From Fibrobacter succinogenes subsp. succinogenes S85 (GTDB taxonomy: Bacteria; Fibrobacterota; Fibrobacteria; Fibrobacterales; Fibrobacteraceae): a stretch of DNA of 32,000 bases. A program made the translations under genes and the position numbers. The notes under the pieces are model-generated. The model was not told where the DNA came from and did no database searches. It worked only from the letters and a program-made list of their open reading frames with translations. This document shows, piece after piece, positions 143 to 30,411 of this stretch (position 1 is its first letter; every line of letters begins with the position of its first letter). Location: NCBI RefSeq assembly GCF_000146505.1, contig NC_017448.1, forward strand, positions 60,001 to 92,000, in the 5' to 3' direction.

Positions 143-2512
143 GTGAACTCTATACGCTTTTTTAAACTATATCTTTTGGCTGTCTTGGCTGTGTTCCTCG
201 TTGCCTGTTCCGATGACGATGATGGGGCCGAATTCATGTTTGATAGGGAAATTTCCGAAGTATCCGTTCTTTATGAATGCGATTCGGATACGGCAAGCGA
301 ACCTTGCTTTAAAATCAGGTACCGCTATCCGTATCGTCTTGACGATTATGCGGGTCTGTGCCTTTGGTTCGATACGACAATTGTTAACGACACTTCTAAG
401 GCGGTAAGCGATAAGCAGATTCGGCTTGCTCACGATACCACAAATGAGGAAACTTATTTCCACGAGTACAAGAAGTCGGGCCGTTATTACGACACAATTG
501 ATGTGTCTAAAATGGTTGCGCCGTATATCAAAGATGGTTATGATTCTCTTCAGGTTGCGATGTTTAGTGAATATACTGATGGTGGCGACCCTGGTGCCGT
601 GCAACGTGCAGTGCTTCGCTTTAAGGATAATGAGCCTCCTTCTGTCGTTGTGCCAGAAGACTCTGTTTGGTCTAAAGGTGTGATGCTTTCTTGGGATCGT
701 CCAATAGACCAGACCAATTTGCAGGGGGTCGGGAACGGCAAAATCTTAGGTTATAATATTGTCATTTATGCGATTGATCGTCCGGATGAGGATATTCGCG
801 ATTTGAAGGTTTCTTTGCAAACTCCGGCTGGCCTTGACTACACGGGGGGCAAGTACTATAAGCGCAGCGCTCAGATAGTCCGTAATACGGACTCCGTCTA
901 TATTCAAGAAATAAAGTCTAGCGATAAGGATAAAAACTATCTGCGCTTGGTCGTTCTGGATGGTGGGGCTTACGATAGCAAGAATCCTTCGAATAACCAC
1001 TTCCGCATGTTTATCGAAGGCCTCCGTACGCGTTCCAATACTGAAGATTACGAGTACAAGGTGGGATTCTCGTCTTGGGATATCGTCGGCAATCGTAGTG
1101 GCTCGCAGGGCGATACCAAGGTCAGTCCCAAAGACTGGCGTGGATTCATGACAACGGATTCCATTGCTCCTCTGATGTCTAGAAAAATTTTCACAGAAGA
1201 GGATTCGCTTTTCCCGGGCTATGCAAAGCTTGATAGCAACAACAGAGTCCGCATTTTCTGGAGCCGTAGTGTAGACCCGCTCCAGTTCAAACATGGAATT
1301 GAAGTTGATTCCGAATTGGTCATTCCGAGAGGCTGCAACATTCATGAATGTTACAGGGCTGTGACTAGTTATACCGTTGAGTATTATAATAAGCTGGACA
1401 AATCCTGGAACCTGTATCAAGATAACGAGAATATTGCTGGAACCCGCTATATTAAGGGTAAAGATGGTAGCTTCAGTGTCGATGCCTTAGATACGGCTAG
1501 TTTTGTGGGCTATACCATTCGCAGGGTTGCTCCTGGTGATACGCTGATTTTGCGCATCCTTTCTGTTGACAGTTCGGGCTATAAATCAAAGGTTTTGCAG
1601 GATTCAATTTTAGTTTCACCGGGGACTCTCGCGTCGGAACTCCAGTGTCCAGAAGGCTATGTCGCTGTTTCCACGTCTGATACGACTTCGTTCTGCATGG
1701 AACGGTTTGAGCATCGTGATGCAAAAGGCAATTTCATGACAAACGTTCTGCATTCTGAAGCTATGGCTGCTTGCGAGGCTGTCTCTGCGAGCGGTTTTGA
1801 AGTGTCGCTTTGTCGTGAACGCGATTGGGAGCTCGTATGCCTGTCGGGAGGGTCTTTGTCTTATGGTGTTATCGAAGAGGAAGATTCACAGGCTTCGGAC
1901 TACTTGTTCTCTGTATGCAATGTGAGTACAAACGATTCTGCAAGTGCCGCTAATATTGCAAAACGCGATCCGCACTGCATGAACCCGATGGGTGTTCATG
2001 ATTTGCCTGGCCAGTATCAGGAATGGGTGAGGGGGCGTTCCGATGATACCATCGCTATTTTGAAAGGCTCCAGCTATAAGGTGTTCCAGGGAATTGACCG
2101 CGAATCTATTGCCTATTGCACGAACCGCGCATTCCCGTTCTATACGCGTCCGGGGTACACGCAGGATACTGTTTACCTCTACCGCGAAGGAACTCAAGTG
2201 GATACGGTTTACGCTGCTGATACGACTAGAATTTTGCACAAAATATTGACGAAAAACGATTTCAAGGATACGCTTCAGTTCTATGACGTCGTTGATGCTA
2301 ATGGCAAGGTGATAGGCAAGGATTATTCGCTTTATTCTGAATACAAGAAGGGGGGCAACGCATGGCTTGATTCTATTGCTAACGGACTTAAGTATAAGCC
2401 CACTAGCAAGGAACCTGTATTCCTCACAGGTGAAATGATTTCTTATCGTCATGCATCATCGTTCTACAAGTCAACTGCTATTGGCTTCCGCTGCTGCGCG
2501 TACAAGAAATAA
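143..2512 (+). CDS. Large secreted lipoprotein with a C-terminal FGE/SUMF1-like (sulfatase-modifying-factor-like) domain
   Basis: GTG start. The N-terminus MNSIRFFKLYLLAVLAVFLVAC is a lipoprotein signal with lipobox LVAC followed by DDDD. The C-terminal part has FCMERFEH and ends ...AIGFRCCAYKK, resembling FGE-sulfatase domains (FCIDKYEV...GFRC). The 789-codon ORF has coherent codon usage. Confidence 0.7.
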   Translation: MNSIRFFKLYLLAVLAVFLVACSDDDDGAEFMFDREISEVSVLYECDSDTASEPCFKIRYRYPYRLDDYAGLCLWFDTTIVNDTSKAVSDKQIRLAHDTTNEETYFHEYKKSGRYYDTIDVSKMVAPYIKDGYDSLQVAMFSEYTDGGDPGAVQRAVLRFKDNEPPSVVVPEDSVWSKGVMLSWDRPIDQTNLQGVGNGKILGYNIVIYAIDRPDEDIRDLKVSLQTPAGLDYTGGKYYKRSAQIVRNTDSVYIQEIKSSDKDKNYLRLVVLDGGAYDSKNPSNNHFRMFIEGLRTRSNTEDYEYKVGFSSWDIVGNRSGSQGDTKVSPKDWRGFMTTDSIAPLMSRKIFTEEDSLFPGYAKLDSNNRVRIFWSRSVDPLQFKHGIEVDSELVIPRGCNIHECYRAVTSYTVEYYNKLDKSWNLYQDNENIAGTRYIKGKDGSFSVDALDTASFVGYTIRRVAPGDTLILRILSVDSSGYKSKVLQDSILVSPGTLASELQCPEGYVAVSTSDTTSFCMERFEHRDAKGNFMTNVLHSEAMAACEAVSASGFEVSLCRERDWELVCLSGGSLSYGVIEEEDSQASDYLFSVCNVSTNDSASAANIAKRDPHCMNPMGVHDLPGQYQEWVRGRSDDTIAILKGSSYKVFQGIDRESIAYCTNRAFPFYTRPGYTQDTVYLYREGTQVDTVYAADTTRILHKILTKNDFKDTLQFYDVVDANGKVIGKDYSLYSEYKKGGNAWLDSIANGLKYKPTSKEPVFLTGEMISYRHASSFYKSTAIGFRCCAYKK

Positions 2513-3614: not shown

Positions 3615-5156
3615 TTACAGCGGAATATTTCCGTGCTTCTTCCAAAGCACAGCCTTCTTCTTGTTCTTCAAGTTTTCGAATGCAGAAACAAGGCGGTCAC
3701 GAACGCTCTTCGGTTCAATGACTTCGTCGATGAATCCGTTGCCAGCGGCAATGTACGGGTTCAAGTACTTTTCTTCGTACTGAGCGATGTACTGTTCGCG
3801 GAGCTTGGCCGGTTCTGCAGAAGCGGCGATTTCCTTTCTGCGGAGAATGTCGACAGCGCCTTCTGCACCCATCACAGCAATCTGAGCGATCGGGAGGGCG
3901 AACACGCAGTCTGCACCGAGGTTCTTGCTGTTCATGGCGATGTATGCGCCACCGTAAGCCTTGCGGAGGATGAGCGTCACGCGCGGCACTGTTGCTTCGG
4001 CGTATGCAAAGAGGAGCTTTGCACCGTGGCGGATAATGCCGTTGTGTTCCTGCTTCGTGCCCGGCATGTAACCCGGAACGTCTTCGAGCGTAAGGATAGG
4101 AATGTTGAAGCTATCGCAGAAGCGGACAAAGCGTGCTGCCTTATCGCTGGCGTCCACGTCCAAAGAACCGGCGAGGTACTTCGGCTGGTTAGCGACAACG
4201 CCAATCACGTTACCGTCGAGGCGGATAAAGCCGATGACAACGTTCTTTGCAAATTCCGGCTGGATTTCAAGGAAGGAATCCTTGTCGGCAAAGCAGTTGA
4301 GCACGTCGCGAACATCGTAAGCGCGCTTGAAGTTGTCCGGAATGATTTCTTCGATATCGGCGGACTTGTCCACGATTGTACCGGCCTGAGCGACAGACTT
4401 GTCTGTGTTGCTCTGCGGGAGGTACTTGAGCAAGTTACGCACGCCTTCGAGGCATTCCTTGTCGTCCTTGTACACGAAGTGTGCAACACCGGATTTGGAA
4501 GAATGAACGCCTGCGCCACCGAGCTGATCCGGGGTCACGACTTCAGCAGTCACAGCCTTCACGACAGCCGGGCCCGTGATGAACATCTGGCTCGTCTTTT
4601 CGGTCATGAAGATAAAGTCTGTAATAGCCGGGGAGTAGCAAGCACCACCTGCGCACGGTCCGAGAATCACGGAAATCTGCGGAATCACGCCGCTTGCCCA
4701 AGTGTTACGGGCAAAAATGCCACTGTAACCGTCGAGGGAGCTAACGCCTTCTTCGATACGTGCGCCACCGCCATCGTTGATGCTGATGAACGGCACCATG
4801 GAATCAAGGGCGAGGTCCATCACGTGGCAAATCTTTTTGGCGTGTGCGGAACCGAGAGAACCGCCGCTCACCGTGAAGTCCTGGGAGCAAGCGTAAACCG
4901 GGCGGCCATTGATCTTGCCGTAACCCGTCACGACACCGTCACCGTAAATGCGCTTGGATTCCGGGAGCTCGATGCTCTGGGATAGGCGCATAGCACCGAT
5001 TTCCTTGAACGTTCCCTTGTCAAAAAGGATTTCAAGGCGTTCTCGAGCGGTGAGCTTGCCCTGGGAATGCTGCTTTTCTACACGAGCGGCGCCACCACCG
5101 GCCTGTGCCTTGGCGTTGCGTTCGCTCAACTTTTCTAAATACGATTTATCCCACAT
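3615..5156 (-). CDS. Acyl-CoA carboxylase carboxyltransferase subunit (PccB/MmdA/AccD5-like fused CT)
   Basis: 513 aa. Typical blocks include SQDFTVSGGSLG, FISINDGGGARIEEG, ILGPCAGGACYSPA, FITGPAVV and RKAYGGAYIAM. Confidence 0.9.
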   Translation of the reverse strand: MWDKSYLEKLSERNAKAQAGGGAARVEKQHSQGKLTARERLEILFDKGTFKEIGAMRLSQSIELPESKRIYGDGVVTGYGKINGRPVYACSQDFTVSGGSLGSAHAKKICHVMDLALDSMVPFISINDGGGARIEEGVSSLDGYSGIFARNTWASGVIPQISVILGPCAGGACYSPAITDFIFMTEKTSQMFITGPAVVKAVTAEVVTPDQLGGAGVHSSKSGVAHFVYKDDKECLEGVRNLLKYLPQSNTDKSVAQAGTIVDKSADIEEIIPDNFKRAYDVRDVLNCFADKDSFLEIQPEFAKNVVIGFIRLDGNVIGVVANQPKYLAGSLDVDASDKAARFVRFCDSFNIPILTLEDVPGYMPGTKQEHNGIIRHGAKLLFAYAEATVPRVTLILRKAYGGAYIAMNSKNLGADCVFALPIAQIAVMGAEGAVDILRRKEIAASAEPAKLREQYIAQYEEKYLNPYIAAGNGFIDEVIEPKSVRDRLVSAFENLKNKKKAVLWKKHGNIPL

Positions 5157-5177
5157 AGTATTCCTGTGTGTTTGCGC

Positions 5178-6026
5178 TTACTTCTGAATGCGCTTGATAA
5201 GGTTGGTAAGGACTTCGCCGGGGCCAAGTTCCTTAAATTCCGTGGCACCGTCTGCAATCATGTTCTTGACCGTCTGTGTCCAACGGACGGGGGAGGTGAG
5301 CTGAGTGAGAAGGTTTGCCTTAATTTCGTTCGGGTCTGTATGCGGCTTGGCGTCTACGTTTTGGTAGACCGGGCAGACCGGAGTCGAAAATTCAGTTTCT
5401 TCGATAGCCTTGGCGAGTTCTGCACGAGCGCTTTCCATGAGCGGGGAGTGGAATGCACCACCGACCTGCAGCGGAACGACACGCTTCACCTTACCGGTGA
5501 GATATGCAGCGACTTGATCGATACCGGCCTTTTCGCCAGAAATCACGACCTGTCCCGGGCTGTTGAAGTTTGCCGGAACAACTGCTGCGTCCTTGACCTG
5601 TGCGCAAGCTTCTTCGACGAGTTCGTCAGAACCGCCGAGAACTGCTGCCATCGTACCCGGGCGGAGCTCGCATGCCTTCTGCATGGCTTCGGCACGCTTT
5701 GCAACGAGCTTGAGACCAGCTTCAAAAGTGATGGCGCCCGTAGCCGTGAGTGCGGAGAATTCGCCGAGCGAATGACCAGCGGCCATATCCGGCTTACCAC
5801 CCTGAACCTTAGCCATAGCAACGGAGAGCAGGAACACTGCCGGCTGCGTGACTTTCGTCTGCTTGAGGTCTTCTGCGGTGCCATTGAACATCACGTCAGT
5901 GATGTTGAAGCCGAGAATTTCGTTTGCCTTGAGGAACATCGACTTTACGTCGGCGTTCGATTCGAATAAATCTTTGCCCATTCCTGGGAACTGAGAACCC
6001 TGACCGGGAAATACGTATGAAATCAT
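5178..6026 (-). CDS. fabD: Malonyl-CoA:ACP transacylase
   Basis: N-terminus MISYVFPGQGSQ, active-site GHSLGEFSAL, and VGGAFHSPLM. Length is 282 aa. Confidence 0.93.
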   Translation of the reverse strand: MISYVFPGQGSQFPGMGKDLFESNADVKSMFLKANEILGFNITDVMFNGTAEDLKQTKVTQPAVFLLSVAMAKVQGGKPDMAAGHSLGEFSALTATGAITFEAGLKLVAKRAEAMQKACELRPGTMAAVLGGSDELVEEACAQVKDAAVVPANFNSPGQVVISGEKAGIDQVAAYLTGKVKRVVPLQVGGAFHSPLMESARAELAKAIEETEFSTPVCPVYQNVDAKPHTDPNEIKANLLTQLTSPVRWTQTVKNMIADGATEFKELGPGEVLTNLIKRIQK

Positions 6027-6030
6027 GGCT

Positions 6031-6058
6031 CAAATTTAGTAAATAATATTACTGTAAA
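6031..6058 (-). promoter_or_regulatory. Candidate FCB-type promoter of fabD: TTTACA-N14-TAAATTTG, ending 4 nt before the ATG
   Basis: The minus-strand reading is TTTACAGTAATATTATTTACTAAATTTGAGCC-ATG. The bipartite pattern is the same as at 6208-6235 and 18943-18969. Confidence 0.4.
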
Positions 6059-6207
6059 TGGTATTTATATATTACAGAAAACATACTTTTTAAAAAAAGT
6101 TTACAATACGCATTTTGCCCTAAACACACTAACTAATATAGGTGTGATAAGCGTTTACCATTTATCCTCGAAAACTGCATTTTGTACGTTTTTTATGAAA
6201 ACGGCAA

Positions 6208-6235
6208 TTTACGAAAGAATATTTTTCTATCTTTG
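6208..6235 (+). promoter_or_regulatory. Candidate FCB-type promoter of the ACP operon: TTTACG-N14-TATCTTTG
   Basis: TATCTTTG matches the TAnnTTTG (-7) element described for Bacteroides. The flank TTTCTATCTTTG(G)CAC is shared with 18958-18973. The SD-like AAGAGGA at 6253-6259 lies 9 nt before the ATG. Confidence 0.45.
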
Positions 6236-6268
6236 CACTAAAATTTTATCAAAAGAGGATACAAAAAT

Positions 6269-6514
6269 ATGGCAAACGAAGAAATCAAGAGCAAACTCAA
6301 GGCATTCTTTATGTCCGATCTCGGCGTAGACGGCGATGTCCTGAATTACGATACTCCGCTTTTCGGCGAAGAAATCGGTCTTGACTCCGTGGACTCCCTT
6401 GAAATCATCTCCTTCGTCGATGACAACTTCGGCGTTTCTATGACTGGCGTTGCTAAGGAAAACTTCCAGAGCATCGATACCATCGCCGCTTTCATCGAAA
6501 AGAACAAGGCTTAA
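6269..6514 (+). CDS. Acyl carrier protein (dedicated, non-canonical)
   Basis: 81 aa and acidic. The phosphopantetheine-site motif is GLDSVDSLEIISFV (DS-L/V), rather than the GADSLDTVELV of housekeeping AcpP. Confidence 0.85.
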   Translation: MANEEIKSKLKAFFMSDLGVDGDVLNYDTPLFGEEIGLDSVDSLEIISFVDDNFGVSMTGVAKENFQSIDTIAAFIEKNKA

Positions 6515-6550
6515 TCAAGCCTTTTTATTTGAGTATTGTTTGGAATTTCT

Positions 6551-8944
6551 ATGACTTCTAATAATCGTCGCTGTGTTGTTTCTGGCCTTGGCGTTATCTG
6601 CGCCGTAGGCAACAATGTTGAAGAAACCTGGAAAAACGCCCTGAATTCCGTCTCCGGTATTCACAAGACTACTTCGCTCGATACCAAGAACTGCTATGCA
6701 GACCTCGCTGCCGAAGTGAACTGTGATACGCTGGACGATATCGAATGCCCGGACGAAAAGGACCGCGCCTCCAAGCTCTGCATCAAGGCTATGAAAGAAG
6801 CCCTGAACGATGCAGGTCTCGGTGACTTTGCCGATAGCAGCCGCGTAAGCGTCATCATCGGTAGCTGCGTGGGTGGAGTCCTCAGCATTGAACAGTACCA
6901 CCGCCACGGTAAGAACGTCAACGAAATTCCGAAGATGCCCATTGCCGCAATCGCCTCCCAGGTGGCAGAAGCTTGCCATGCGGGCGGCATTGTCACGAAC
7001 GTGGGCAACGCTTGCGCTGCCGGTACGATTTCCATTGCTCTTGCTTGCGACCTTATCCGCGCAGGCAAGGCTGATGTCGTGATCGCCGGTGGCTCCGACT
7101 CCTTTGCTTCTGTTCCGTATTCCGGCTTCCTTTCTCTCCATGCCTTGGACGAAAATGGTTGCTCTCCGTTCAACCACTGCAACGGCATCACCCTCGGTGA
7201 AGGCGCTGGCATCGTGATTGTCGAATCTCTGGAACATGCCGAAAAGCGTAACGCCAAACGTTATTGCGAAGTTCTCGGCGCAGGTGTCACAAGCGACGCT
7301 CACCACATTACGGCTCCTCGCGAAGATGGCGTCTGCCTCCTCGAAGCGATGGACCGCGCTGTCAAGAATTCTGGCATCAAGAAGTCTGACATCGGTTATC
7401 TGAACGCTCATGGTACGGGTACGGGCAAGAACGACAATGCAGAAATCAATGCATTCCACAAGTTCTTCGACGAAGAAAATCCGACCTTGAGTGTCAGTTC
7501 GACCAAGGTAATGACGGGCCACTGCCTCGGCGCTGCCGGTGCAATCGAAGCCGTGTTCAGCATCAAGGCTCTCACGACGAATACCGTTTTGCCGACGCTC
7601 CATTACACTGCCGAAGATTCCGAAGCCCTCAAGGCCAAGGTCGGCACGATGGACTATGTGCAGAACACCCCGCGTGCCAAGGAACTCGAATGCGTCATGA
7701 GCAACAACGTCGCTTTCGGCGGCACGAACGCAAGTATCGTGTTCAGCAAGAAGCCGGGCGATGTGCAGAGCCAGGTCGCTAAGGATAAGAAGATTGCTGT
7801 GACAGGTATTGGCATTGTAAGCCCGATCGGTAACAGCAAGGAAATATACCTTGACGCCGTCAAGAACGGTAAGCTCCCGGAATCCGCTTCCATTTGCTCT
7901 ACCGTCACGAACGACGACTACAAGGAACTCGGCATCAAGATGGCCTTCTACCGCAAGCTCGACAATCTGGGCCAGCTCCAGACCGTGTCCGGCATGCGCG
8001 CCCTCAAGGATGCAAACTTTACGGTCACTGAAGACAACGCCAAGCAGATTGGTATCATCGTGGGTACTAGCGAAGGCGGCCTCGGTGCCACTTACGATTT
8101 CGAGGAACTCATTGCCGAAGCCGGTAATGCAGGCGGTAGCGCCTTCAAGTTCCCTCACACAGTTTATAATGCCGCCGGTGGTTACCTCTCGATTCTCTCT
8201 GGAATCAAGGGCTACGGCGTCACCATCACGACGGGTCCGCTCTCCGGTCTCGATAGCATCGGCTACTCCATGAATGTCATCCACGACGGTCAGGAAGAGG
8301 CTATGATGGCTACGGGTACGGACGAAAACCTCCCGATCATCACCGAACTTTGCCAGAAGATGAACGTCGCCGCCGACAAAGTGGTGGAACCGTATTCCAA
8401 CTCCAATGGCTTTGTGGTGGGCGATGGCTCCGTTTCTATCATCATGGAAACCGAAGACTACGCCAAGTCCCGTGGTGCAAAGGTTTACTGCTACGCCCTC
8501 GGTTACGGCAACGGCCGCAAGAACGTGAAGTTCGGCCACATCTCCGGTTCTGACGAAGCTCTTGACCTTGCTATCAAGGATGCTCTCAACGATGCAGGCG
8601 TGAGCATTGACGAAATTGACGCTGTCTGCGGTTTTGCAAACGGCTTCAAGAAGATTGACGATATCGAAAAGGGTGCATACGCACGCGTGTTTGGCGACAA
8701 GCTTGCAAGCCTCCCGCTCTTCCAGGTGAAGGAACGCGTGGGCGAAGGCCGTGCCGCTTCCGCGACACTCGCCGCTGCCGAAGCTGCTCTCATGCTCGGT
8801 GGTGAACTTGCCGAAGAAAACGCCTACTTTATCGCAAATGGCGAAGTGTCCAAGAAGAAGGTCGCAACAGCGGGCTTCAAGAAGATCTTGGTCACTTCCT
8901 TTGCAACGGGTGGTTCTTACAGCGCCGTCGTTCTCGGTAAATAA
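6551..8944 (+). CDS. Fused beta-ketoacyl synthase (KS) and KS-like chain-length-factor-like domain
   Basis: The N-half has the Cys-His-His triad (GNACAAG, DAHHITAP, NAHGTGT) plus KVMTGHCLGAAG. The C-half starts like a KS (IAVTGIGIVSPIG) but has TGPLSGLDS where the Cys belongs and CGFANGF where the second His motif belongs. The ORF is open from TTG 6536, but the ATG at 6551 (MTSNNRRCVVSGLG) is preferred. Confidence 0.85.
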   Translation: MTSNNRRCVVSGLGVICAVGNNVEETWKNALNSVSGIHKTTSLDTKNCYADLAAEVNCDTLDDIECPDEKDRASKLCIKAMKEALNDAGLGDFADSSRVSVIIGSCVGGVLSIEQYHRHGKNVNEIPKMPIAAIASQVAEACHAGGIVTNVGNACAAGTISIALACDLIRAGKADVVIAGGSDSFASVPYSGFLSLHALDENGCSPFNHCNGITLGEGAGIVIVESLEHAEKRNAKRYCEVLGAGVTSDAHHITAPREDGVCLLEAMDRAVKNSGIKKSDIGYLNAHGTGTGKNDNAEINAFHKFFDEENPTLSVSSTKVMTGHCLGAAGAIEAVFSIKALTTNTVLPTLHYTAEDSEALKAKVGTMDYVQNTPRAKELECVMSNNVAFGGTNASIVFSKKPGDVQSQVAKDKKIAVTGIGIVSPIGNSKEIYLDAVKNGKLPESASICSTVTNDDYKELGIKMAFYRKLDNLGQLQTVSGMRALKDANFTVTEDNAKQIGIIVGTSEGGLGATYDFEELIAEAGNAGGSAFKFPHTVYNAAGGYLSILSGIKGYGVTITTGPLSGLDSIGYSMNVIHDGQEEAMMATGTDENLPIITELCQKMNVAADKVVEPYSNSNGFVVGDGSVSIIMETEDYAKSRGAKVYCYALGYGNGRKNVKFGHISGSDEALDLAIKDALNDAGVSIDEIDAVCGFANGFKKIDDIEKGAYARVFGDKLASLPLFQVKERVGEGRAASATLAAAEAALMLGGELAEENAYFIANGEVSKKKVATAGFKKILVTSFATGGSYSAVVLGK

Positions 8945-8965
8945 TTTTTTGAAGGAGAATTTATA

Positions 8966-9697
8966 ATGAAAGTTGCAATCGTTACTGGTTCTTCTAAGGG
9001 GATTGGCAAGGCTTGTGCCTTGCGCCTCGCTCGTGACGGCTACACGGTCGTCGTAAACTACTCCAGCTCTGATGAAGCTGCACTCCAGACGCTTGAACAA
9101 ATTAAGGCTGAAGGTGGCGATGGCATGGTCTACAAGGCTAACGTCGCTGTTCTTGCCGAAGTCAAGCAGATGGTGCGCGATGTTTTCAAGGCTTATGGCC
9201 GTATCGATGTTCTTGTGAACAACGCCGGTATCGTCCGTGACGAATATCTTTTGATGATGAACCCGGATACGCTCGACAAGTGCTTTGACTTGAACGTGAA
9301 GGGCTACTTCTACTGCGCACAGCAGGTCGCTGTCAAGATGTACAAGCAGAAGTCTGGCGTTATCATCAACATGTCTTCTGTTTCTTCTAAGTTTGCTCTC
9401 GCAGGCCAGGCCGTTTACAGTGCCACGAAGGGCGCCGTGAACTCCTTTACGCAGACGCTCGCCAAGGAACTTGGCGGTTACGGCATCCGCGTGAACGCTG
9501 TCGCTCCGGGCTTTGTCGCTACTGAAATGATTGAAGCTATTCCGGAAGAAACCCGCAAGGGCTACCTTGAAAAGGTGCCACTCAAGCGCTTTGCCTCTGC
9601 TGACGAAGTCGCAAACGTCGTTTCCGCTCTCGCTTCTGACCAGTTCGCCTATGTGACGGGTCAGGTCATCGTTTTGGATGGAGGCCTTTCCCTGTGA
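8966..9697 (+). CDS. fabG: 3-oxoacyl-ACP reductase (SDR)
   Basis: Motifs TGSSKGIGKA, VNNAGI and the catalytic YSATKGAV. The SD GAAGGAGAA lies upstream. Length is 243 aa. Confidence 0.9.
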   Translation: MKVAIVTGSSKGIGKACALRLARDGYTVVVNYSSSDEAALQTLEQIKAEGGDGMVYKANVAVLAEVKQMVRDVFKAYGRIDVLVNNAGIVRDEYLLMMNPDTLDKCFDLNVKGYFYCAQQVAVKMYKQKSGVIINMSSVSSKFALAGQAVYSATKGAVNSFTQTLAKELGGYGIRVNAVAPGFVATEMIEAIPEETRKGYLEKVPLKRFASADEVANVVSALASDQFAYVTGQVIVLDGGLSL

Positions 9698-10140
9698 TGA
9701 ACATTTACCAGATCAGCGAAAAAATTGCCCAGCGTCCGCCTTTCCAGATGATTGAAAAGGTCACGGAACTCGTTCCGAACGAATCTGCAACGGGCATCAA
9801 GAATGTCTCTGTAAACGAACCGTACTTCATGGGCCACTTCCCGGGCACCCCGATTATGCCGGGCGTCCTCATTTGCGAAGCTTGCGCCCAGCTCTGCTCT
9901 CTCGTTATCGAGAAGCCGGCTGAAGACCTCGAAAAAAACTTGTACGTTCTTTTGAAGATTGACGGTTTCAAGTTCGTGAAGCCTGTGATTCCGGGCGACC
10001 AGCTCGAAATCTCCGTCAACAAGACGAAGGGCGGTGGAGTCATCGTCGGTTTTGACTGCGTTGTCAAGGTGAACGGCAATGTCCATGCCAAGGGCTCCCT
10101 TACGTTTACGTCTATTCCCAAAGAATCTCTGGGCAAATAA
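9697..10140 (+). CDS. fabZ: 3-hydroxyacyl-ACP dehydratase
   Basis: HFPGTPIMPGVLICEACAQ carries the FabZ His/Glu motif. The ATG at 9697 overlaps the fabG stop (TGATG); a GTG at 9694 is an alternative start. Confidence 0.9.
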   Translation: MNIYQISEKIAQRPPFQMIEKVTELVPNESATGIKNVSVNEPYFMGHFPGTPIMPGVLICEACAQLCSLVIEKPAEDLEKNLYVLLKIDGFKFVKPVIPGDQLEISVNKTKGGGVIVGFDCVVKVNGNVHAKGSLTFTSIPKESLGK

Positions 10141-10156
10141 ATTAATTGTCCTTCGT

Positions 10157-10184
10157 GTCTTCCCGGCCTTGTGCCGGGATCGCC
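10157..10184 (+). repeat. Hairpin repeat family A-like copy inside the operon (GTCTTCCCGGC-CTTGT-GCCGGGATCGCC)
   Basis: 7-bp stem TCCCGGC/GCCGGGA with GTC..TTCCCG / CGGGA.TC.CC flanks resembling 3422-3450. There is no T-run. Confidence 0.55.
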
Positions 10185-10197
10185 TTATATACAGTTG

Positions 10198-10908
10198 ATG
10201 ATTGAGAAAGCGAAAAATATAATTGCTGGTTTGTTTTGGAAGTTTGTGCTCTTCCTCGTTGTTTACGGGGTGCGCACTTACTTGTTAGTCGTTTATCGTC
10301 CCAAGATGACGTTCTTAGGGTCTGTCAAGTCGACTGACCTTAAGGAACCGATGATTATTATTGCTAACCACACGAGCATGCTCGATCCCTTGATGGTGCA
10401 GTCCCTGTTCTTCCACAAGCGCAGTATCGTTGTGGCTAAGGACCAGGTCGAAGACCCGCATTTCAGCTGGGCTTTGAAGCGTTTCAAGAACGTCATTCCT
10501 TGCGACCGCTTTAATCTTGATACCGAATGGGCGCTCCTTGCCAAGAAGGAACTTGAAAAGGGCAATTCCGTTATTATCTTCCCGGAAGGCAAGTGCCGTT
10601 ATGATGGCCTCTTGAATGAGTTCAAGACGGGTTTTGCATTCCTCGCTCGCAGTACGGGTTATCCGGTCCTTTCTCTCGGCATTGACGGCATTTACAAGAT
10701 GGGGCACCGCACGCAGATTTTGGTGGACGAACCCGAAAAGATTGAACGCGTCAAGGGCATTCCGTCTTCCAAGCATCTTGCAGAACGCAGCGAATATTTC
10801 CGCCAGAAGGTTTGGGAACTCAAGCAGCGCGCTTTGGGCCAGACGGGGGCTATTCTCCCTGTGGCTACCGAAACTCCTGCAGAAGTTTTGCCCGAGGAGA
10901 GCAAGTAA
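10198..10908 (+). CDS. Lysophospholipid/1-acyl-sn-glycerol-3-phosphate acyltransferase family protein (PlsC-like), membrane anchored
   Basis: NHTSMLDP (H-x4-D) and IFPEGKC motifs, with an N-terminal hydrophobic helix. The ORF is open from GTG 10171, but that extension reads through the hairpin, so the ATG at 10198 (MIEKAKN) is preferred. Confidence 0.8.
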   Translation: MIEKAKNIIAGLFWKFVLFLVVYGVRTYLLVVYRPKMTFLGSVKSTDLKEPMIIIANHTSMLDPLMVQSLFFHKRSIVVAKDQVEDPHFSWALKRFKNVIPCDRFNLDTEWALLAKKELEKGNSVIIFPEGKCRYDGLLNEFKTGFAFLARSTGYPVLSLGIDGIYKMGHRTQILVDEPEKIERVKGIPSSKHLAERSEYFRQKVWELKQRALGQTGAILPVATETPAEVLPEESK

Positions 10909-11756
10909 TGAAGATTGGCTTGGCTCTAGAAGGCGGTTCGCGTCAGACGATATTCTCGGCAGGCGTTTTGGACGCTTGGCTTGATGAAGGTGTTTATTTC
11001 CCGTATATTTCGGGCGTAAGTGCCGGTTGCCATGCGGCCATGAACTTTGTCACGCGCCAGCGCGGCCGTTTCCGCTATATTATCCAGCCGACCAAAATCC
11101 AGCAGGGTAGGGATAAGGCTCACCGCATTTTTGATGGAATCCAGAAGGAATGCTATGCGCTCCATTACAATGCTGCGTATGGTGATATGCCGTTCGATTT
11201 CCACCTGTTCTTTGGTTCGGGCGTGGAATGCGAATTTGGCCTTACCTGTTTGGAAACCGGCCGTTCGGAATTCTTCCAGGAATACATGAGCGAAAAGCGC
11301 TTGCTCGATATCGTGAACGCGAGCAGTGCCCTCCCGATGCTTTTCCCGATTGCGCAGATTGACGGCAAGCATTATGCAGACGGCTGCGTGACCTCTCCGA
11401 TTCCGTACCAGCGTGCATTCGAGAAGGGCTGCGACAAGGTCGTTGTAGTTTCGACGCATTACCCTGGCGAAATCGTGACGGACTTCCGCAAGTACCGTGT
11501 GATTTTGAATCCGATGTTCAAGCGCAAGTATCCGGATTTCTTCCGTGCGCTCATGTTGCGTTACAAGCGTTACGAGAAGATGTTTGCCGAGATGGAAAAG
11601 CTCGAAAAATCTGGCAAGCTCTTGATTTTCCGCCCGGAAAAGGAAGTTTGCGACCTCTTTGCGACGGATCGTAACGAACTCGACGAATCCTACAACATGG
11701 GGCTTGAATACGCCAAGCGCCGCATGGGTGACCTCAAAGCCTTCATGGAAATTTAA
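10908..11756 (+). CDS. Patatin-like phospholipase
   Basis: GGSRQTIFSAGVLD forms the oxyanion hole, GVSAG is the G-x-S-x-G nucleophile, and YADGCV carries the Asp of the dyad. The start ATG overlaps the upstream stop (TAATG). The ORF-track extension from 10812 overlaps the previous gene and was rejected. Confidence 0.8.
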   Translation: MKIGLALEGGSRQTIFSAGVLDAWLDEGVYFPYISGVSAGCHAAMNFVTRQRGRFRYIIQPTKIQQGRDKAHRIFDGIQKECYALHYNAAYGDMPFDFHLFFGSGVECEFGLTCLETGRSEFFQEYMSEKRLLDIVNASSALPMLFPIAQIDGKHYADGCVTSPIPYQRAFEKGCDKVVVVSTHYPGEIVTDFRKYRVILNPMFKRKYPDFFRALMLRYKRYEKMFAEMEKLEKSGKLLIFRPEKEVCDLFATDRNELDESYNMGLEYAKRRMGDLKAFMEI

Positions 11757-11769
11757 ATGAAATTTGTAA

Positions 11770-11796
11770 AGTCCGCTTTCGAGCGGGCTTTTTTTT
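11770..11796 (+). terminator. Intrinsic terminator ending the ACP-to-patatin operon
   Basis: AGTCCGC-TTTCGA-GCGGGCT stem-loop followed by T8. Confidence 0.75.
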
Positions 11797-11897
11797 GCAT
11801 TGTTACTCCGGTCTCTGTACCGGGGGCGCCTTCTTTTATAAAGAAAAACATTGTTATAAATGTAAAACTTTGTTTACTAAATTCTACAAAATGCATA

Positions 11898-11915
11898 AAC
11901 TTACAAAAATGTAAG
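11898..11915. promoter_or_regulatory. Palindromic 18-mer AACTTACAAAAATGTAAG (copy 1), candidate operator upstream of gdhA
   Basis: An identical 18-mer recurs at 11980-11997. The core is CTTACA-AAAA-TGTAAG. Confidence 0.5.
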
Positions 11916-11979
11916 TGTTTGCTTTGTGTACCCTCGTTTTTTTGCGAAAAAAAGCAATTGGTAAAACTGATGAAAAACT

Positions 11980-11997
11980 AACTTACAAAAATGTAAG
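11980..11997. promoter_or_regulatory. Palindromic 18-mer AACTTACAAAAATGTAAG (copy 2)
   Basis: Identical to 11898-11915, 82 bp away and about 100 bp upstream of the gdhA ATG. Confidence 0.5.
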
Positions 11998-12045
11998 AAA
12001 TTGAAGATTTTTACCCATTTTTCACTTTTTCGGAGCACCCTTTAC

Positions 12046-17692: not shown

Positions 17693-18892
17693 ATGTTGTT
17701 GAAGAATTTATGGTGTGGAAAGATGTCTTTGCGTGGGTGCGTGGTTTCTGCGGCTGTTTCTGGTTTGCTTTTGCTTGCTGCTTGTGATGAAGATAGCGGT
17801 ACTAGCGCTCCAAATGACAATGGAATTTCTAGTTCTGAAGAAATTCAGAGTTCTTCTAGCAGTCTAAAAGTTGAATCGTCGTCCAGCGTCATTCTGAGTG
17901 GTGATGGCCACGAAGAATCTAGTCGCAGTTCATCATCGAACTTGAAGACCATTTCGTCCTCTAGCAAGCAATTGAATTCATCTTCAAGTTATAAACCTAG
18001 TTCATCATCGAGCTTGATAGTTTCGTCCTCTAGCAAGCAGATGAGTAGCTCTTCGAGTCTGATATCTAGCTCGTCTTCTAGTAGCCAAAAAGTTGGATTA
18101 TCGTCCAGCGTCATTCTGAGTGGTGATAGCCACGAAGAATCCAGTAGCAGTTTATCAGCTGAATTGAATTGTTCGATGCGTTTAGAATGGGGGACAGACA
18201 GAAGTTGGAATTTTCCTAAAGAATGTCGCTTTAATTCAGAAATAGCTTACGACTCCATAACAGATTCTCGCGATGGTCAAATTTACAAGATTGTGAAAAT
18301 TGGTAATCAAGTGTGGATGGCCGAAAACTTGAATTATGCGGACAGTGCCACAACATTGAGTTTAAAGGACAGGAGCTGGTGCTATGGCAACAATCCAGAA
18401 AACTGTGCTCTGGCGGGTCGCCTTTATACTTGGGCGGCAGCGATTGACTCAGTGAAACTTGCTACCGATAAAGATAACCCGCAGGATTGTGGTTATGAAA
18501 AAAGTTGTGCATTGCCCGATACGGTGTACGGAATTTGCCCACCGGGTTGGCACTTGCCGAAATACCAGGAATGGAAAACGTTGTTTAACGAGGTCGGTGG
18601 AGATTCTATTGCCGCCAAGATGTTGAAGTCGCAGGCTGGCTGGCGTTATAATAATTACAATAATGGTTCTAGCGGAAATGGTACAGACGCGTTTGGTTTT
18701 TCCGCGTTGCCCGCTGGTGGCAGGTACTACGATGGCAATTTCGACCGCGATGGCAACAACGCCCATTTCTGGACATCCACGGAATATGATAGCTATAATG
18801 CCTATGACGTGCTCTTGCTTTATGAATACGACAATGTGTACCGAAGCCTCAACAAATATGAAGGTTTTTCAATCCGTTGTTTAAAGAACTAA
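17693..18892 (+). CDS. Lipoprotein with a Ser-rich linker and a C-terminal Fibrobacter succinogenes major paralogous (FISUMP, TIGR02145-like) domain
   Basis: Signal/lipobox ...LLLLAAC. The linker is about 120 aa of poly-Ser. The C-terminal domain motifs are DSRDGQIYKIVKIGNQVWMAENLNY, GRLYTWAAA, GICPPGWHLPKYQEW, FGFSALPAGGRY, AHFWTSTE and GFSIRCLKN. The start could also be M11 (17723). Confidence 0.88.
   Translation: MLLKNLWCGKMSLRGCVVSAAVSGLLLLAACDEDSGTSAPNDNGISSSEEIQSSSSSLKVESSSSVILSGDGHEESSRSSSSNLKTISSSSKQLNSSSSYKPSSSSSLIVSSSSKQMSSSSSLISSSSSSSQKVGLSSSVILSGDSHEESSSSLSAELNCSMRLEWGTDRSWNFPKECRFNSEIAYDSITDSRDGQIYKIVKIGNQVWMAENLNYADSATTLSLKDRSWCYGNNPENCALAGRLYTWAAAIDSVKLATDKDNPQDCGYEKSCALPDTVYGICPPGWHLPKYQEWKTLFNEVGGDSIAAKMLKSQAGWRYNNYNNGSSGNGTDAFGFSALPAGGRYYDGNFDRDGNNAHFWTSTEYDSYNAYDVLLLYEYDNVYRSLNKYEGFSIRCLKN
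17879..17923 (+). repeat. In-frame copy 1 of hairpin family A' inside the lipoprotein CDS (encodes SSSVILSGDGHEESS)
   Basis: TCGTCCAGCGTCATTCTGAGTGGTGATGGCCACGAAGAATCTAGT is 43/45 identical to 18101-18145 and shares flanks with intergenic 17532-17566. Confidence 0.85.
18101..18145 (+). repeat. In-frame copy 2 of hairpin family A' inside the lipoprotein CDS (encodes SSSVILSGDSHEESS)
   Basis: TCGTCCAGCGTCATTCTGAGTGGTGATAGCCACGAAGAATCCAGT, in the same codon phase as copy 1 and 222 nt downstream. Confidence 0.85.
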
Positions 18893-18992: not shown

Positions 18993-20819
18993 ATGGTTAA
19001 ATTGAGAAGGAACGAATCGAAGTACAAGCGCTTAAGCCGTATTTATTACAATAGGATGTTTCCGAGGCGTCAGGATGCCATGCGTGTGGCGTGGTCTGTG
19101 GCGGCGGGGGTCTTTATTGGTATTTGGCCGACGATTGGGGTTGCCATTATTTTGACGGTTGCGTTCTGTGCCTTGTTCCGCCTTCCTAAGGTTCCGGGGA
19201 TTGTCTCGTCGTTTGTGGCAAACCCGCTGACTCAGTTCGGATTTTTCTACCCGACGGGTTATATGCTCGGGTGTAAGATTGTCCATCCGGAGGCGATTAA
19301 GTTTGATTTTTTGGAAGAATTCCAGGGGCTTTCGTTCAAAAATTTCACGACGGTGATTGGGCATTTGTGGAATGATGCTGCGGACCACCTGTTGGCGTTC
19401 ATGATTGGCATTACAATTGTCGCTGCTATTGGCGGCGCCATCTTCTTTTTTCTAGCTTATTTCATCGTAAGTTACAGGAAGAAAAAATGGATTGAGGCAA
19501 AGACGGGTTATATCCATAACTTGATTGCCGAAGACGAAGTTTTAATCAAAGAAGCACACAAAGGAAAGAAACCTATGATGCACATCTATCCGTTCAAGGC
19601 TTTGCGTCCGGTGAACCCGGCTGAAGCTGAGACTATCTCTGCGCTCCCTTACGACGTGATGAATCGCGCCGAAGCCAAAGCTATGGCTGAGGGCCTTCCG
19701 CACTCCTACTTGCGCGTGACGCGTGCCGAACTCGAACTTCCGGATTCTGTCGACGCTTACGATCCGAAGGTTTATGCCCACGCTCGTGAAAATCTCGACA
19801 AGATGATCGAAGACGGCGTGATCGCTTTCGACCAGAAGCCGTGCCTCTACGTTTATCGCCAGACGATGAACGGTCGCGAACAGTACGGTCTTGTGTGCTG
19901 CGTTCCGGCTGCCGACTACTTCAACGGCACCATCAAGAAGCACGAACTTACCCGCGCTGACAAGGAAGAAGACCGTTTGCGCCATGTGCTCGCCACGAAC
20001 GCCAATACGGGTCCGGTATTCCTCACTTACCGCGACAACGGCCAGTTTGATATCTTCGGTGCCGTGACCAAGCGCAAGCCTGTTTACGACTTCGTGAGCA
20101 AGGGCGACGGCTTTGGCCATACCGTCTGGATTATCGACGACGATGCAGAAATCGAAGCTATCCGCAAGTCCTTTGAATCTGTTCCGGTAAGCTACATCGC
20201 TGACGGTCACCACCGCAGTGCTGCTGGTGCTCGTGCTGCCAGCTACCGCGCCGAACAGAATCCGAAGAACACGGGCGACGAAGAATACAACCGTTACCTC
20301 GCTATCCTCTTCCCGAGCACCCAGCTCAAGATTTTGGACTACAACCGCGTGCTTAAGGACTTGAACGGCCGCACGCCGGAACAGCTCATGGAAGAAATGA
20401 AGCTTGTGTTCGATATCGAAGAATTGCCGAGCATGCAGAGCCCGGCTAAGCAGAACCAGGTGAACTTCTACATGGGCGGCAAGTGGTATGCTTGCACATT
20501 CAAGGACAAGTTCCTCAAGAATCTTGGCCCGGTCGACAGCCTCGACGTGGCACTCCTCCAGAAGCTCATCTTGAAGCCGCTCTTTGACATTGACGATCCG
20601 CGTACTTCCAAGCGCATCGACTTTGTCGGTGGCATCCGTGGTCTCGGCGAACTCGTAAAGCGCGTCGATAGCGGTGAATGCGCTTGCGCATTTGCAATGT
20701 ACCCGACCACGCTCGATCAGCTCATGAGCATAGCCGATGCTGGCGAAATCATGCCGCCGAAGAGCACTTGGTTTGAACCGAAGCTCCGCGACGGTCTCTT
20801 GGTCCACACGCTCGACTAA
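18993..20819 (+). CDS. DUF2062-like membrane domain fused in frame to a DUF1015-family protein
   Basis: Residues 1-170 are basic at the N-terminus and have hydrophobic helices (VAWSVAAGVFIGIWPTIGVAIILTVAF.., IVAAIGGAIFFFLAYFIV), resembling DUF2062. From M195 (ATG 19575, preceded by AAGGAAAG), MMHIYPFKALRPV...YIADGHHRSAA is a typical DUF1015 sequence. No stop codon separates the two parts. Confidence 0.7.
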   Translation: MVKLRRNESKYKRLSRIYYNRMFPRRQDAMRVAWSVAAGVFIGIWPTIGVAIILTVAFCALFRLPKVPGIVSSFVANPLTQFGFFYPTGYMLGCKIVHPEAIKFDFLEEFQGLSFKNFTTVIGHLWNDAADHLLAFMIGITIVAAIGGAIFFFLAYFIVSYRKKKWIEAKTGYIHNLIAEDEVLIKEAHKGKKPMMHIYPFKALRPVNPAEAETISALPYDVMNRAEAKAMAEGLPHSYLRVTRAELELPDSVDAYDPKVYAHARENLDKMIEDGVIAFDQKPCLYVYRQTMNGREQYGLVCCVPAADYFNGTIKKHELTRADKEEDRLRHVLATNANTGPVFLTYRDNGQFDIFGAVTKRKPVYDFVSKGDGFGHTVWIIDDDAEIEAIRKSFESVPVSYIADGHHRSAAGARAASYRAEQNPKNTGDEEYNRYLAILFPSTQLKILDYNRVLKDLNGRTPEQLMEEMKLVFDIEELPSMQSPAKQNQVNFYMGGKWYACTFKDKFLKNLGPVDSLDVALLQKLILKPLFDIDDPRTSKRIDFVGGIRGLGELVKRVDSGECACAFAMYPTTLDQLMSIADAGEIMPPKSTWFEPKLRDGLLVHTLD

Positions 20820-30214: not shown

Positions 30215-30411
30215 TATTATCTCATCCCTTGAAAAAACTAAACCCACACGTTCTATAATGGAATATATAGCGGTTTTCTATATAATAGACCGCTTTTATT
30301 TGTTTTTTTTATTTACTGTTGTAAACGTTGAGAAGTTTTTTAGGGGGATGGGGCGAAATGGCACAAAAAAAAGGAATTTGTGACTAATTTGTGCTGTTAT
30401 TTTTCTGTCAT

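Follow-up and report, generated by a model that had tools for sequence, protein, structure and literature searches.

The subject of this analysis is a six-gene operon at positions 6269–11756 (+) of a 32-kb stretch of Fibrobacter succinogenes S85 DNA (contig NC_017448.1, positions 60,001 to 92,000; hereafter the window), which encodes an acyl carrier protein (ACP), a single-chain protein joining an active ketosynthase (KS) to a chain-length factor (CLF)-like half, a ketoreductase (KR), a dehydratase (DH), a membrane acyltransferase and a patatin-like phospholipase. We read this cassette as an accessory type II line derived from fatty acid synthase (FAS), built upon a CylI-type KS-CLF and its own ACP, whose (poly)unsaturated chain would be esterified into a glycerolipid through the patatin and the acyltransferase, and we put the probability of this reading at about 0.5. 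The cassette falls within the known FAS-like type II systems in which a KS-CLF is served by a dedicated ACP, namely those encoded by the cyl, aryl polyene (APE) and fun/pks clusters.

The condensing enzyme (6551–8944 (+), 797 aa, best start ATG 6551) consists of two successive pairs of ketoacyl-synt and Ketoacyl-synt_C domains. In its N-terminal half the triad of an active FabF-like ketosynthase (Cys155, His287, His324) is intact, and in the C-terminal half the equivalent positions hold Pro563, Ala696 and Glu732, so that this half is dead and CLF-like, bearing out an earlier preliminary description of the locus in which a KS was said to be fused to a dead KS-like partner. The same division of labor is seen in 17 of 17 diverse family members, where the N-half triad is invariant and the C half lacks it, the Cys-equivalent position never being Gln, the residue typical of the CLFs of aromatic polyketide synthases (PKS). 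KS-KS proteins of ~800 aa are common, a whole-library search recovering more than 100 clusters at 50% identity from Firmicutes, Actinobacteria, Proteobacteria, Planctomycetes and other phyla, and the CylI-type fused KS-CLF thus reaches far beyond pigment operons. As an architecture the single-chain KS-CLF is known, if seldom discussed, since it is the CylI type of the granadaene cyl operons and recurs among the fun/pks synthases of L. reuteri. The preliminary suggestion that the combination of genes is not a described system therefore stands in part: the fused synthase is of a described type, and no paper was found on the subclade to which this one belongs. As to related arrangements, KS and CLF-like proteins are encoded by adjacent separate genes in loci from Planctomycetes, Syntrophaceae, an anammox metagenome-assembled genome (MAG) and a deltaproteobacterium (L036, L039, L061 and L085 in the numbering of this analysis). 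A KS/CLF-like heterodimer of known structure, PDB 9s5h, named only '3-oxoacyl-ACP synthase', matches the N half through chain B (240 bits) and the C half through chain C (96 bits); a literature search on fused KS-CLF proteins and on this entry found nothing.

When annotated plasmids were searched by tblastn with the KS-CLF, two informative matches emerged, the megaplasmid of E. eligens ATCC 27750 (62% identity over the full length) and pMC319 of Bacillus thuringiensis MC28, whose CylI-like protein is 33% identical over 91% of the length. The pMC319 homolog is annotated '3-oxoacyl-ACP synthase / Chain length factor', and its operon comprises genes for a thioesterase, malonyl transacylase, KR, ACP, DH, 'beta-hemolysin' (CylE), glycosyltransferase, aminomethyltransferase and KS/CLF, as well as dTDP-rhamnose genes. 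This locus (L092, 207594–227822) is a complete cyl-like operon of the granadaene type on a conjugative Bacillus plasmid, and homologs of the KS-CLF also occur on dozens of plasmids of the B. cereus group and Priestia. The N half encoded in the window is closer to its B. thuringiensis CylI-like counterpart (39%, 263 bits) than to the FabF of Fibrobacter itself (32.5%, 198 bits). A neighbor-joining tree of the fused proteins split in two, with ten FabFs included, recovered all C halves as monophyletic (bootstrap 100), set all fused N halves apart from FabF (bootstrap 85), and joined Fibrobacter with gut Firmicutes in a subclade (bootstrap 95 for N halves and 100 for C halves). As judged from sequence, the fused protein and the CylI-type synthases of polyene (granadaene-type) operons form a single family.

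The KS-CLF is conserved across the genus, being 78–97% identical throughout Fibrobacter and Hallerella, the FabD encoded beside it passes its equivalog cut-off, and the DH passes one FabZ model (NF000582), all of which could be taken to mean that the cassette is simply the housekeeping type II FAS of Fibrobacter, furnishing its main ACP, KS, KR and DH together with PlsC. We consider this highly improbable and, with a separate FabF found throughout the genus, effectively excluded. That stand-alone FabF scores 550 bits against the fabF equivalog TIGR03150, above the cut-off of 493.75 to which the fused KS, with 474 bits summed over two stretches, does not rise; it is 62–98% identical across Fibrobacteraceae including F. 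intestinalis, and keeps constant neighbors (RNase T, PBP, Lgt). In close relatives (KS 83–88% identical; L007-9, L099) a stand-alone KS of 409 aa is encoded 5–6 kb from the cassette on its contig. The cassette ACP (6269–6514 (+), 81 aa; PP-binding PF00550 32 bits; phosphopantetheine site in GLDSVDS, with its DS intact) is indeed not AcpP-like, as had been noted, its best NCBIfam scores of 30–38 bits comparing with cut-offs of 65–130 and reaching no AcpP cut-off; with the AcpP models themselves it attains about 33 bits where 66–92 are required. A housekeeping role is also at odds with the loss of DH, KR, or acyltransferase and patatin from the cassette in some lineages, with the absence of FabH and an enoyl reductase (ER), with its occurrence in at least five genomic contexts, and with an identity of 56–72% to Firmicute copies, as against 41–47% for FabF between the same phyla. 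The view that this is a specialized set rather than the only ACP and KS of the organism thus holds for the lineage, on the evidence of relatives and with S85 itself read over the 32-kb window. Orthologous operons never contain fabI or fabH, and FabI, FabK, FabL and FabV were not found in the 12 Fibrobacteraceae arrangements compared or in the window. A further candidate, an anaerobic unsaturated-fatty-acid branch of the FabN/FabO kind, was deemed unlikely, given that DH is missing in some lineages, that the cassette is patchy in Clostridia, and that such a branch has no need for a dedicated ACP or CLF.

Conservation extends beyond the phylum. A collinear ACP–KS-CLF–KR–DH set is common to E. 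eligens and five rumen or gut Firmicute MAGs (Erysipelotrichaceae, Lachnospiraceae, Clostridia, Oscillospiraceae and Ruminococcus) at 56–72% identity, the values for the E. eligens cluster being 64% for the ACP, 69% for the KS half, 56% for the CLF half, 72% for the KR and 67% for the DH. Since Fibrobacter FabF is only 41–47% identical to Firmicute FabFs, the cassette has probably passed horizontally between Fibrobacter and Firmicutes, in one direction or the other; bootstrap values of 12–45% give the grouping of Fibrobacter with E. eligens no support at the level of sister relations. On the E. eligens megaplasmid, where the cluster spans EUBELI_RS11645–RS11605, the order is TetR, HSL-type esterase, ACP, KS-CLF, KR, FabZ, FabD, AccD, flavodoxin-family protein and PlsX, thereby adding malonyl and phospholipid partners (FabD, AccD, PlsX) to the core, and AccB, AccC and AccD accompany it in L013. 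In L016 a full FabH-FabK-FabD-FabG-FabF-FabZ set lies directly downstream. The gut subclade, spanning Fibrobacteraceae and gut Clostridia, is a well-supported and uncharacterized branch with a distinct output end (PlsC-type acyltransferase with patatin, Fe-S flavoprotein), free of amino-acid, sugar or aryl decoration genes and unusual in its distribution across phyla; a literature search found no paper describing the cassette.

Within Fibrobacteraceae, 12 distinct arrangements were compared for cassette content. ACP and KS-CLF are present in all 12 and KR in 11, DH in nine (it is absent from the GCA_900141705.1 type, L007-9, and from L012), and acyltransferase with patatin likewise in nine (absent from UWR2, L011 and L012); the ACP is 82–90% identical in all Fibrobacter loci. 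The cassette had been presented as self-contained, and in the window all six genes are indeed together, but it is modular, with DH missing in some lineages and the acyltransferase and patatin in others, and in genomes lacking the cassette DH or acyltransferase housekeeping copies must therefore exist elsewhere. Cassettes without DH, without acyltransferase and patatin, or with an added flavoprotein, amount to natural 'knock-out' variants for comparison. Within the family the cassette is found in five or more unrelated genomic contexts, and in one of them (L096) a phage-type integrase gene (11151–12044) directly follows that of patatin, a combination which suggests that the cassette may be mobile. 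In several versions from Fibrobacter and Hallerella a ~360-aa protein with a weak match to the Omp85 superfamily is encoded directly 5' of the ACP (L004 8079–9182, L001 8093–9184, L012 8484–9614, L096 4532–5596), with a probable fifth copy (L098 4484–5560) assigned by position and size only; it occurs with or without a thioesterase of the YbgC/FadM-type 4HBT family, has no counterpart in the window, and is possibly a partner in the outer membrane.

The output end of the pathway is where this operon parts from others in its family. The acyltransferase (10171–10908 (+)), which starts at either GTG 10171 or ATG 10198, is of the PlsC type known from lysophospholipid acyltransferases (LPLAT), with an N-terminal transmembrane helix, a PF01553 match of 75 bits and intact HX4D and FPEG motifs. 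Among NCBIfam models it matches best that of the acyltransferase domain in the Aas-type acyl-[ACP]-phospholipid O-acyltransferase (E = 1e-17), and among PDB sequences it matched T. maritima PlsC (5kym) alone. The patatin-like phospholipase (10908–11756 (+), 282 aa; PF01734), which bears a C-terminal DUF6363 (PF19890) and an intact GVSAG serine and DG aspartate, follows the acyltransferase directly, adjacent or overlapping, in nine of the 12 Fibrobacteraceae arrangements. In Firmicutes a PF01553 acyltransferase recurs with the cassette in L014 and L015, and patatin lies near it in Lachnospiraceae (L014) and Ruminococcus (L017). This recurrence of acyltransferase and patatin in two phyla supports the earlier proposal that the chain is handed over to a lipid. 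In Fibrobacter sp. HC4 a 1143-aa protein combining major facilitator superfamily, acyltransferase and AMP-binding domains is encoded directly upstream of the cassette (L095 1249–4680); it is of the LplT-Aas type, whose members transport and re-acylate lysophospholipids.

Hydrolases are recurrent partners too, and lend some substance to a different view of the output end. Besides patatin they include a 4HBT thioesterase (Hallerella, L001), an acyl-ACP thioesterase (L014) and the HSL-type esterase of E. eligens, any of which might release the chain as a free polyene or hydroxy acid, so that the cluster would make a released metabolite and lipid would be at most a transient carrier. The pks cluster of L. 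reuteri, with a similar core accompanied by a dedicated acetyl-CoA carboxylase (ACC) and FabD, offers a precedent for such a scheme in its diffusible pigment (PMC6498181, PMC13235161). We nevertheless hold this to be quite unlikely, in view of an operon that carries no transporter, of a conserved, membrane-anchored PlsC-type acyltransferase that is translationally coupled to the patatin, and of PlsX in the E. eligens cluster.

An accessory pathway for a lipid-bound unsaturated chain could then operate as follows. FabD would load malonate onto the dedicated ACP, malonyl-CoA being formed by the neighboring carboxyltransferase together with biotin carboxylase components encoded elsewhere. The N-terminal KS, acting as a pseudo-heterodimer with the dead C-terminal CLF-like half, would extend a starter acyl chain repeatedly, and the KR (8966–9697 (+), 243 aa, FabG-like with intact YSATK; TIGR01830 264 bits, below 298, and FlxB 231 bits, below 340) and the DH (9697–10140 (+), FabZ/ApeI-like with intact HFPGTPIMPG; PF07977, and NF000582 136 bits, above its cut-off of 113) would convert each new keto group to a 2-enoyl. 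Orthologs of this DH also match PF22818 (ApeI-like). Because the operon supplies no ER, the chain would most likely remain (poly)unsaturated, much as happens when granadaene and aryl polyenes are made. In published models of the cyl, fun/pks and APE systems, ACP, KS, KR and DH without an ER yield a polyene, and in the APE model an LPLAT anchors it to lipid (PMC6985545, PMC6498181, PMC8253772). The membrane acyltransferase would then move the finished chain from ACP to a lyso-glycerolipid, and the patatin would probably make this acceptor by removing an ordinary acyl chain, or else trim the product, the two enzymes forming a deacylation-reacylation (Lands-type) pair. The identities of the genes, their intact or dead catalytic residues, the structure of the operon, its separation from the housekeeping FabF, the family of the synthase and the conservation of the gene set across phyla are observed; that the synthase works iteratively, that enoyl groups go unreduced, which lipid accepts the chain and what patatin does are inferred.

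Several observations weigh against this scheme. Each of the six Firmicute loci, and Fibrobacter HC4 too, encodes next to the cassette a protein of 211–257 aa with FMN_red/Flavodoxin_2 character and a CxxCxxCx6-7C motif, its gene following that of the DH in the Firmicutes and that of patatin in HC4 (L095 11245–11997, L091 15289–16011, L013 4123–4866, L014 13722–14495, L015 14069–14779, L016 13045–13782, L017 3401–4036). Since relatives usually add this Fe-S flavodoxin-like protein, the argument from a missing ER to a polyene is less secure than it looks; the protein may serve as an enoyl reductase of a non-canonical kind, and if it does, the chain made natively would be a saturated one. The cassette DH is absent in L007-9 and both KR and DH in L012, so that this ACP must be accessible to the housekeeping FabG and FabZ, and perhaps to FabI. 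In three Firmicutes (L013, L016, E. eligens) the cassette lies beside housekeeping fab, acc or plsX genes, a placement that suits a role in bulk membrane lipid better than one in pigment formation. Starter-unit, phosphopantetheinyl transferase (PPTase) and export genes are absent, the position of the gut subclade as sister of the CylI clade has low bootstrap values (41 and 12), and a literature search found no report of a Fibrobacter pigment, the product itself not having been seen.

These points together frame another explanation, by which the KS-CLF and ACP would set an unusual chain length, much as in an AcpXL-like elongase, enoyl reduction would be provided in trans by the flavodoxin-like protein of relatives or by a housekeeping enzyme, and a saturated or 3-hydroxy chain would enter lipids. 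It is favored by the constant presence of the flavoprotein in the Firmicute loci, by the dispensability of KR and DH in some lineages, from which it follows that housekeeping enzymes can service this ACP, and by the proximity to fab, acc or plsX genes just described. On the other hand, neither the window nor 11 of the 12 Fibrobacter arrangements include the flavoprotein, its nearest solved relatives are quinone reductases of the NQO1/NQO2 type, matched with weak E-values of ~1e-5, and we know of no enoyl-ACP reductase with its fold. Moreover, the acyltransferase belongs to PF01553 and is not of the LpxXL type, and polyenes are what the characterized proteins of the fused KS-CLF family produce. 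A saturated-chain elongase thus appears to us unlikely, and an accessory line delivering a (poly)unsaturated chain to a glycerolipid remains the preferred reading. A broader and tentative proposal, more doubtful than not in our estimation, is that strict anaerobes of the gut from two phyla, Fibrobacter and Clostridia such as E. eligens, share by horizontal transfer an undescribed membrane-lipid pathway, in which a polyene or some other unusual chain built by the CylI-type KS-CLF on its own ACP would be swapped into phospholipids by patatin and PlsC, with the Fe-S flavodoxin-like protein contributing a novel reduction and possibly representing a new class of enoyl-ACP reductase.

The cassette diverges from two genes on the opposite strand, encoding FabD malonyl-CoA:ACP transacylase (5178–6026 (−), 282 aa; TIGR00128 329 bits, above the cut-off of 260.9) and a carboxyltransferase of the PccB/MmdA type (3615–5156 (−), 513 aa; PF01039 608 bits; TIGR01117 730 bits, below the cut-off of 998.8). 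These were taken at first to supply malonyl units, and the divergent layout is real and makes functional sense, but the link to fabD is limited to a subclade. The carboxyltransferase gene adjoins the cassette in L006, L007-9, L011, L097 and L099, a single family of genomic contexts, and is absent there from five others (L001, L004, L095, L096, L098); it is a probable supplier of malonyl-CoA. A fabD is found at the locus only in the smaller subclade formed by the window, L097 and L007-9, and is missing at the equivalent position in L006, L011 and L099 despite the same context. Its relatives at 79–82% identity are confined to a few Fibrobacter, the next best being Bacteroidales FabD (67–70%), and with the FabD from the E. 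eligens cluster it shares just 39% identity. To judge by these similarities, fabD looks like a cross-phylum insertion derived from Bacteroidales between carboxyltransferase and ACP, and the fabD/carboxyltransferase arrangement, a recent local addition, is no defining part of the system.

Gene identities were assigned from the open reading frame (ORF) listing and from Pfam and NCBIfam profile searches of the window, and all eight genes proved to lie where the preliminary description had placed them and to be what it had called them. Its account of the operon structure also holds in most respects. Stop and start codons overlap at the KR/DH junction (TGATG, 9695–9699) and at the acyltransferase/patatin junction (TAATG, 10906–10910), the remaining gaps measure 21–36 nt, or 57 nt should ATG 10198 be the acyltransferase start, and Shine-Dalgarno-like sequences are seen on inspection. 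The operon ends at a strong intrinsic terminator (11768–11800 (+)), a 10-bp stem with five GC pairs (11768–11791) followed by the T-run TTTTTTGCATT, and the AT-rich control region from which fabD and carboxyltransferase diverge (6027–6268) spans 242 nt with 26% GC, as established by sequence and motif search. The promoter proposed at 6208–6235 within this spacer fares less clearly: a sigma-70 scan gave no match there, but the motif search found inside it a −7 motif of the Bacteroidota/FCB (Fibrobacterota–Chlorobiota–Bacteroidota) type, TAnnTTTG (TATCTTTG, 6228–6235 (+), 33 nt 5' of the ACP start), so that it is kept as a candidate only. A second such motif faces fabD around 6038 (−). An Rfam scan of the spacer gave no match and a repeat scan nothing notable. 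Across the ACP stop codon lies a small hairpin (6506–6523 (+); 7-bp stem, three GC pairs) followed by TTTATTTG, which may act as an attenuator or partial terminator giving an excess of ACP transcript and thus setting the ratio of ACP to enzymes. Profile searches agree with the earlier statement that ER, FabH and thioesterase are not encoded here, and extend it to PPTase and exporter across all 32 kb.

Elsewhere in the window, a 789-aa ORF without a Pfam or NCBIfam match (143–2512 (+)) adjoins an inositol-monophosphatase-family gene, a pairing kept in Fibrobacter sp. UWR2, where the ORF has 783 aa. The window also encodes a Fib_succ_major-domain protein (17693–18892 (+)), a DUF2062-DUF1015 fusion protein (18993–20819 (+)), and a 770-aa protein combining a CotH kinase domain with a chitobiase C-terminal domain and InlB-like repeat domains (27935–30247 (−)). 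The first of these, taken with the matches of the other proteins, assigns the DNA to Fibrobacter. Within the part of the F. succinogenes S85 transcriptome supplement that was consulted, no annotations matched the operon, a single patatin entry lying in an unrelated neighborhood.

Fibrobacter is a principal cellulose degrader of the rumen and E. eligens a common commensal of the human gut, and granadaene is a cytolysin. If an accessory lipid pathway does operate in both hosts, it would point to an unrecognized envelope lipid of anaerobic gut bacteria, which might act in protection from oxidative stress, in the formation of membrane vesicles or in signaling to the host. Interest would rise further should the product prove to be a new membrane lipid or the flavoprotein a new class of reductase.

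Of the known systems, the cyl operon, in which the polyene granadaene is made by CylD, CylG, AcpC, CylZ and CylI without an ER (PMC4315905, PMC6985545), is among the closest. The cyl operon of Streptococcus agalactiae and its cyl-like counterparts in Bacillus, Streptomyces and other Gram-positives share with the window a synthase of ~800 aa made up of an active KS and a dead CLF-like KS, a dedicated ACP, a FabG-like KR, a FabZ-like DH and FabD, and equally lack an ER. In contrast, the window and all Fibrobacter loci are without the CylE N-acyltransferase, the CylF aminomethyltransferase, the CylJ glycosyltransferase with its rhamnose genes and the CylAB exporter, the window having a PlsC-type O-acyltransferase and patatin in their stead; its synthase falls in a separate subclade (bootstrap 95 and 100), and the host is Gram-negative. 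The fun/pks clusters of L. reuteri, compared here by description, follow the same logic with long single-chain KS proteins of 798 and 688 aa and a dedicated ACC and FabD, and the pks product is a diffusible, antimicrobial pigment by which the aryl hydrocarbon receptor (AhR) is activated (PMC6498181, PMC13235161). Alike, too, are the ACP, KR and DH, the absence of an ER, and the gut habitat, but those clusters carry a PPTase, an MBL-fold enzyme or an aminotransferase, and have neither a PlsC-type acyltransferase nor patatin.

APE clusters are assembled from the ApeO/ApeC KS-CLF, the ApeE ACP, the ApeQ KR, the ApeI/P DH, the ApeD LPLAT and the ApeK 4HBT thioesterase. With these and with the xanthomonadin and flexirubin systems the window has in common a KS with an inactive partner, its own ACP, a KR and an ApeI-like DH, and with APE clusters also a PF01553 lysophospholipid acyltransferase within the cluster (HX4D and FPEG in the window), a 4HBT thioesterase being found in the Hallerella-type versions of the cassette. 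It differs in that KS and CLF are fused rather than separate proteins, the solved ApeO/ApeC (6smo) matching the KS-CLF more weakly than FabF does. The window is also without the aryl-starter AMP ligase (ApeH), the initiating KS (ApeR), methyltransferase and glycosyltransferase, profile searches of it finding no AMP-binding protein and no third KS; it lacks Lol-like/RND export genes (ApeL/M/N), instead of which some relatives have the Omp85-like gene upstream. As in type II PKS and highly reducing KS-CLF systems, an active KS is accompanied by a Cys-less homologous partner, and a dedicated ACP, KR and DH are present without a cluster ER.

The rhizobial acpXL-fabZXL-fabF2XL-fabF1XL-lpxXL cassette for very-long-chain fatty acids, to which the operon had initially been likened, resembles it in its dedicated ACP, FabZ paralog, pair of KS-like units and an acyltransferase by which the product enters an envelope lipid. 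There the housekeeping ER is used and the chain comes out saturated. The analogy fails at the acyltransferase, which in the window belongs to PF01553 (PlsC family), with a structural match to PlsC (5kym), whereas the rhizobial enzyme is of the LpxL type; the window has, moreover, its own KR and a fused KS-CLF. Finally, the best profile match of the acyltransferase to the Aas domain, its coupling to a phospholipase, and the LplT-Aas fusion beside the cassette in Fibrobacter HC4 recall Aas/LplT and Lands-type re-acylation. Yet the acyltransferase lacks the acyl-ACP synthetase domain of Aas, and its donor would arise by de novo synthesis on the ACP of the cassette.

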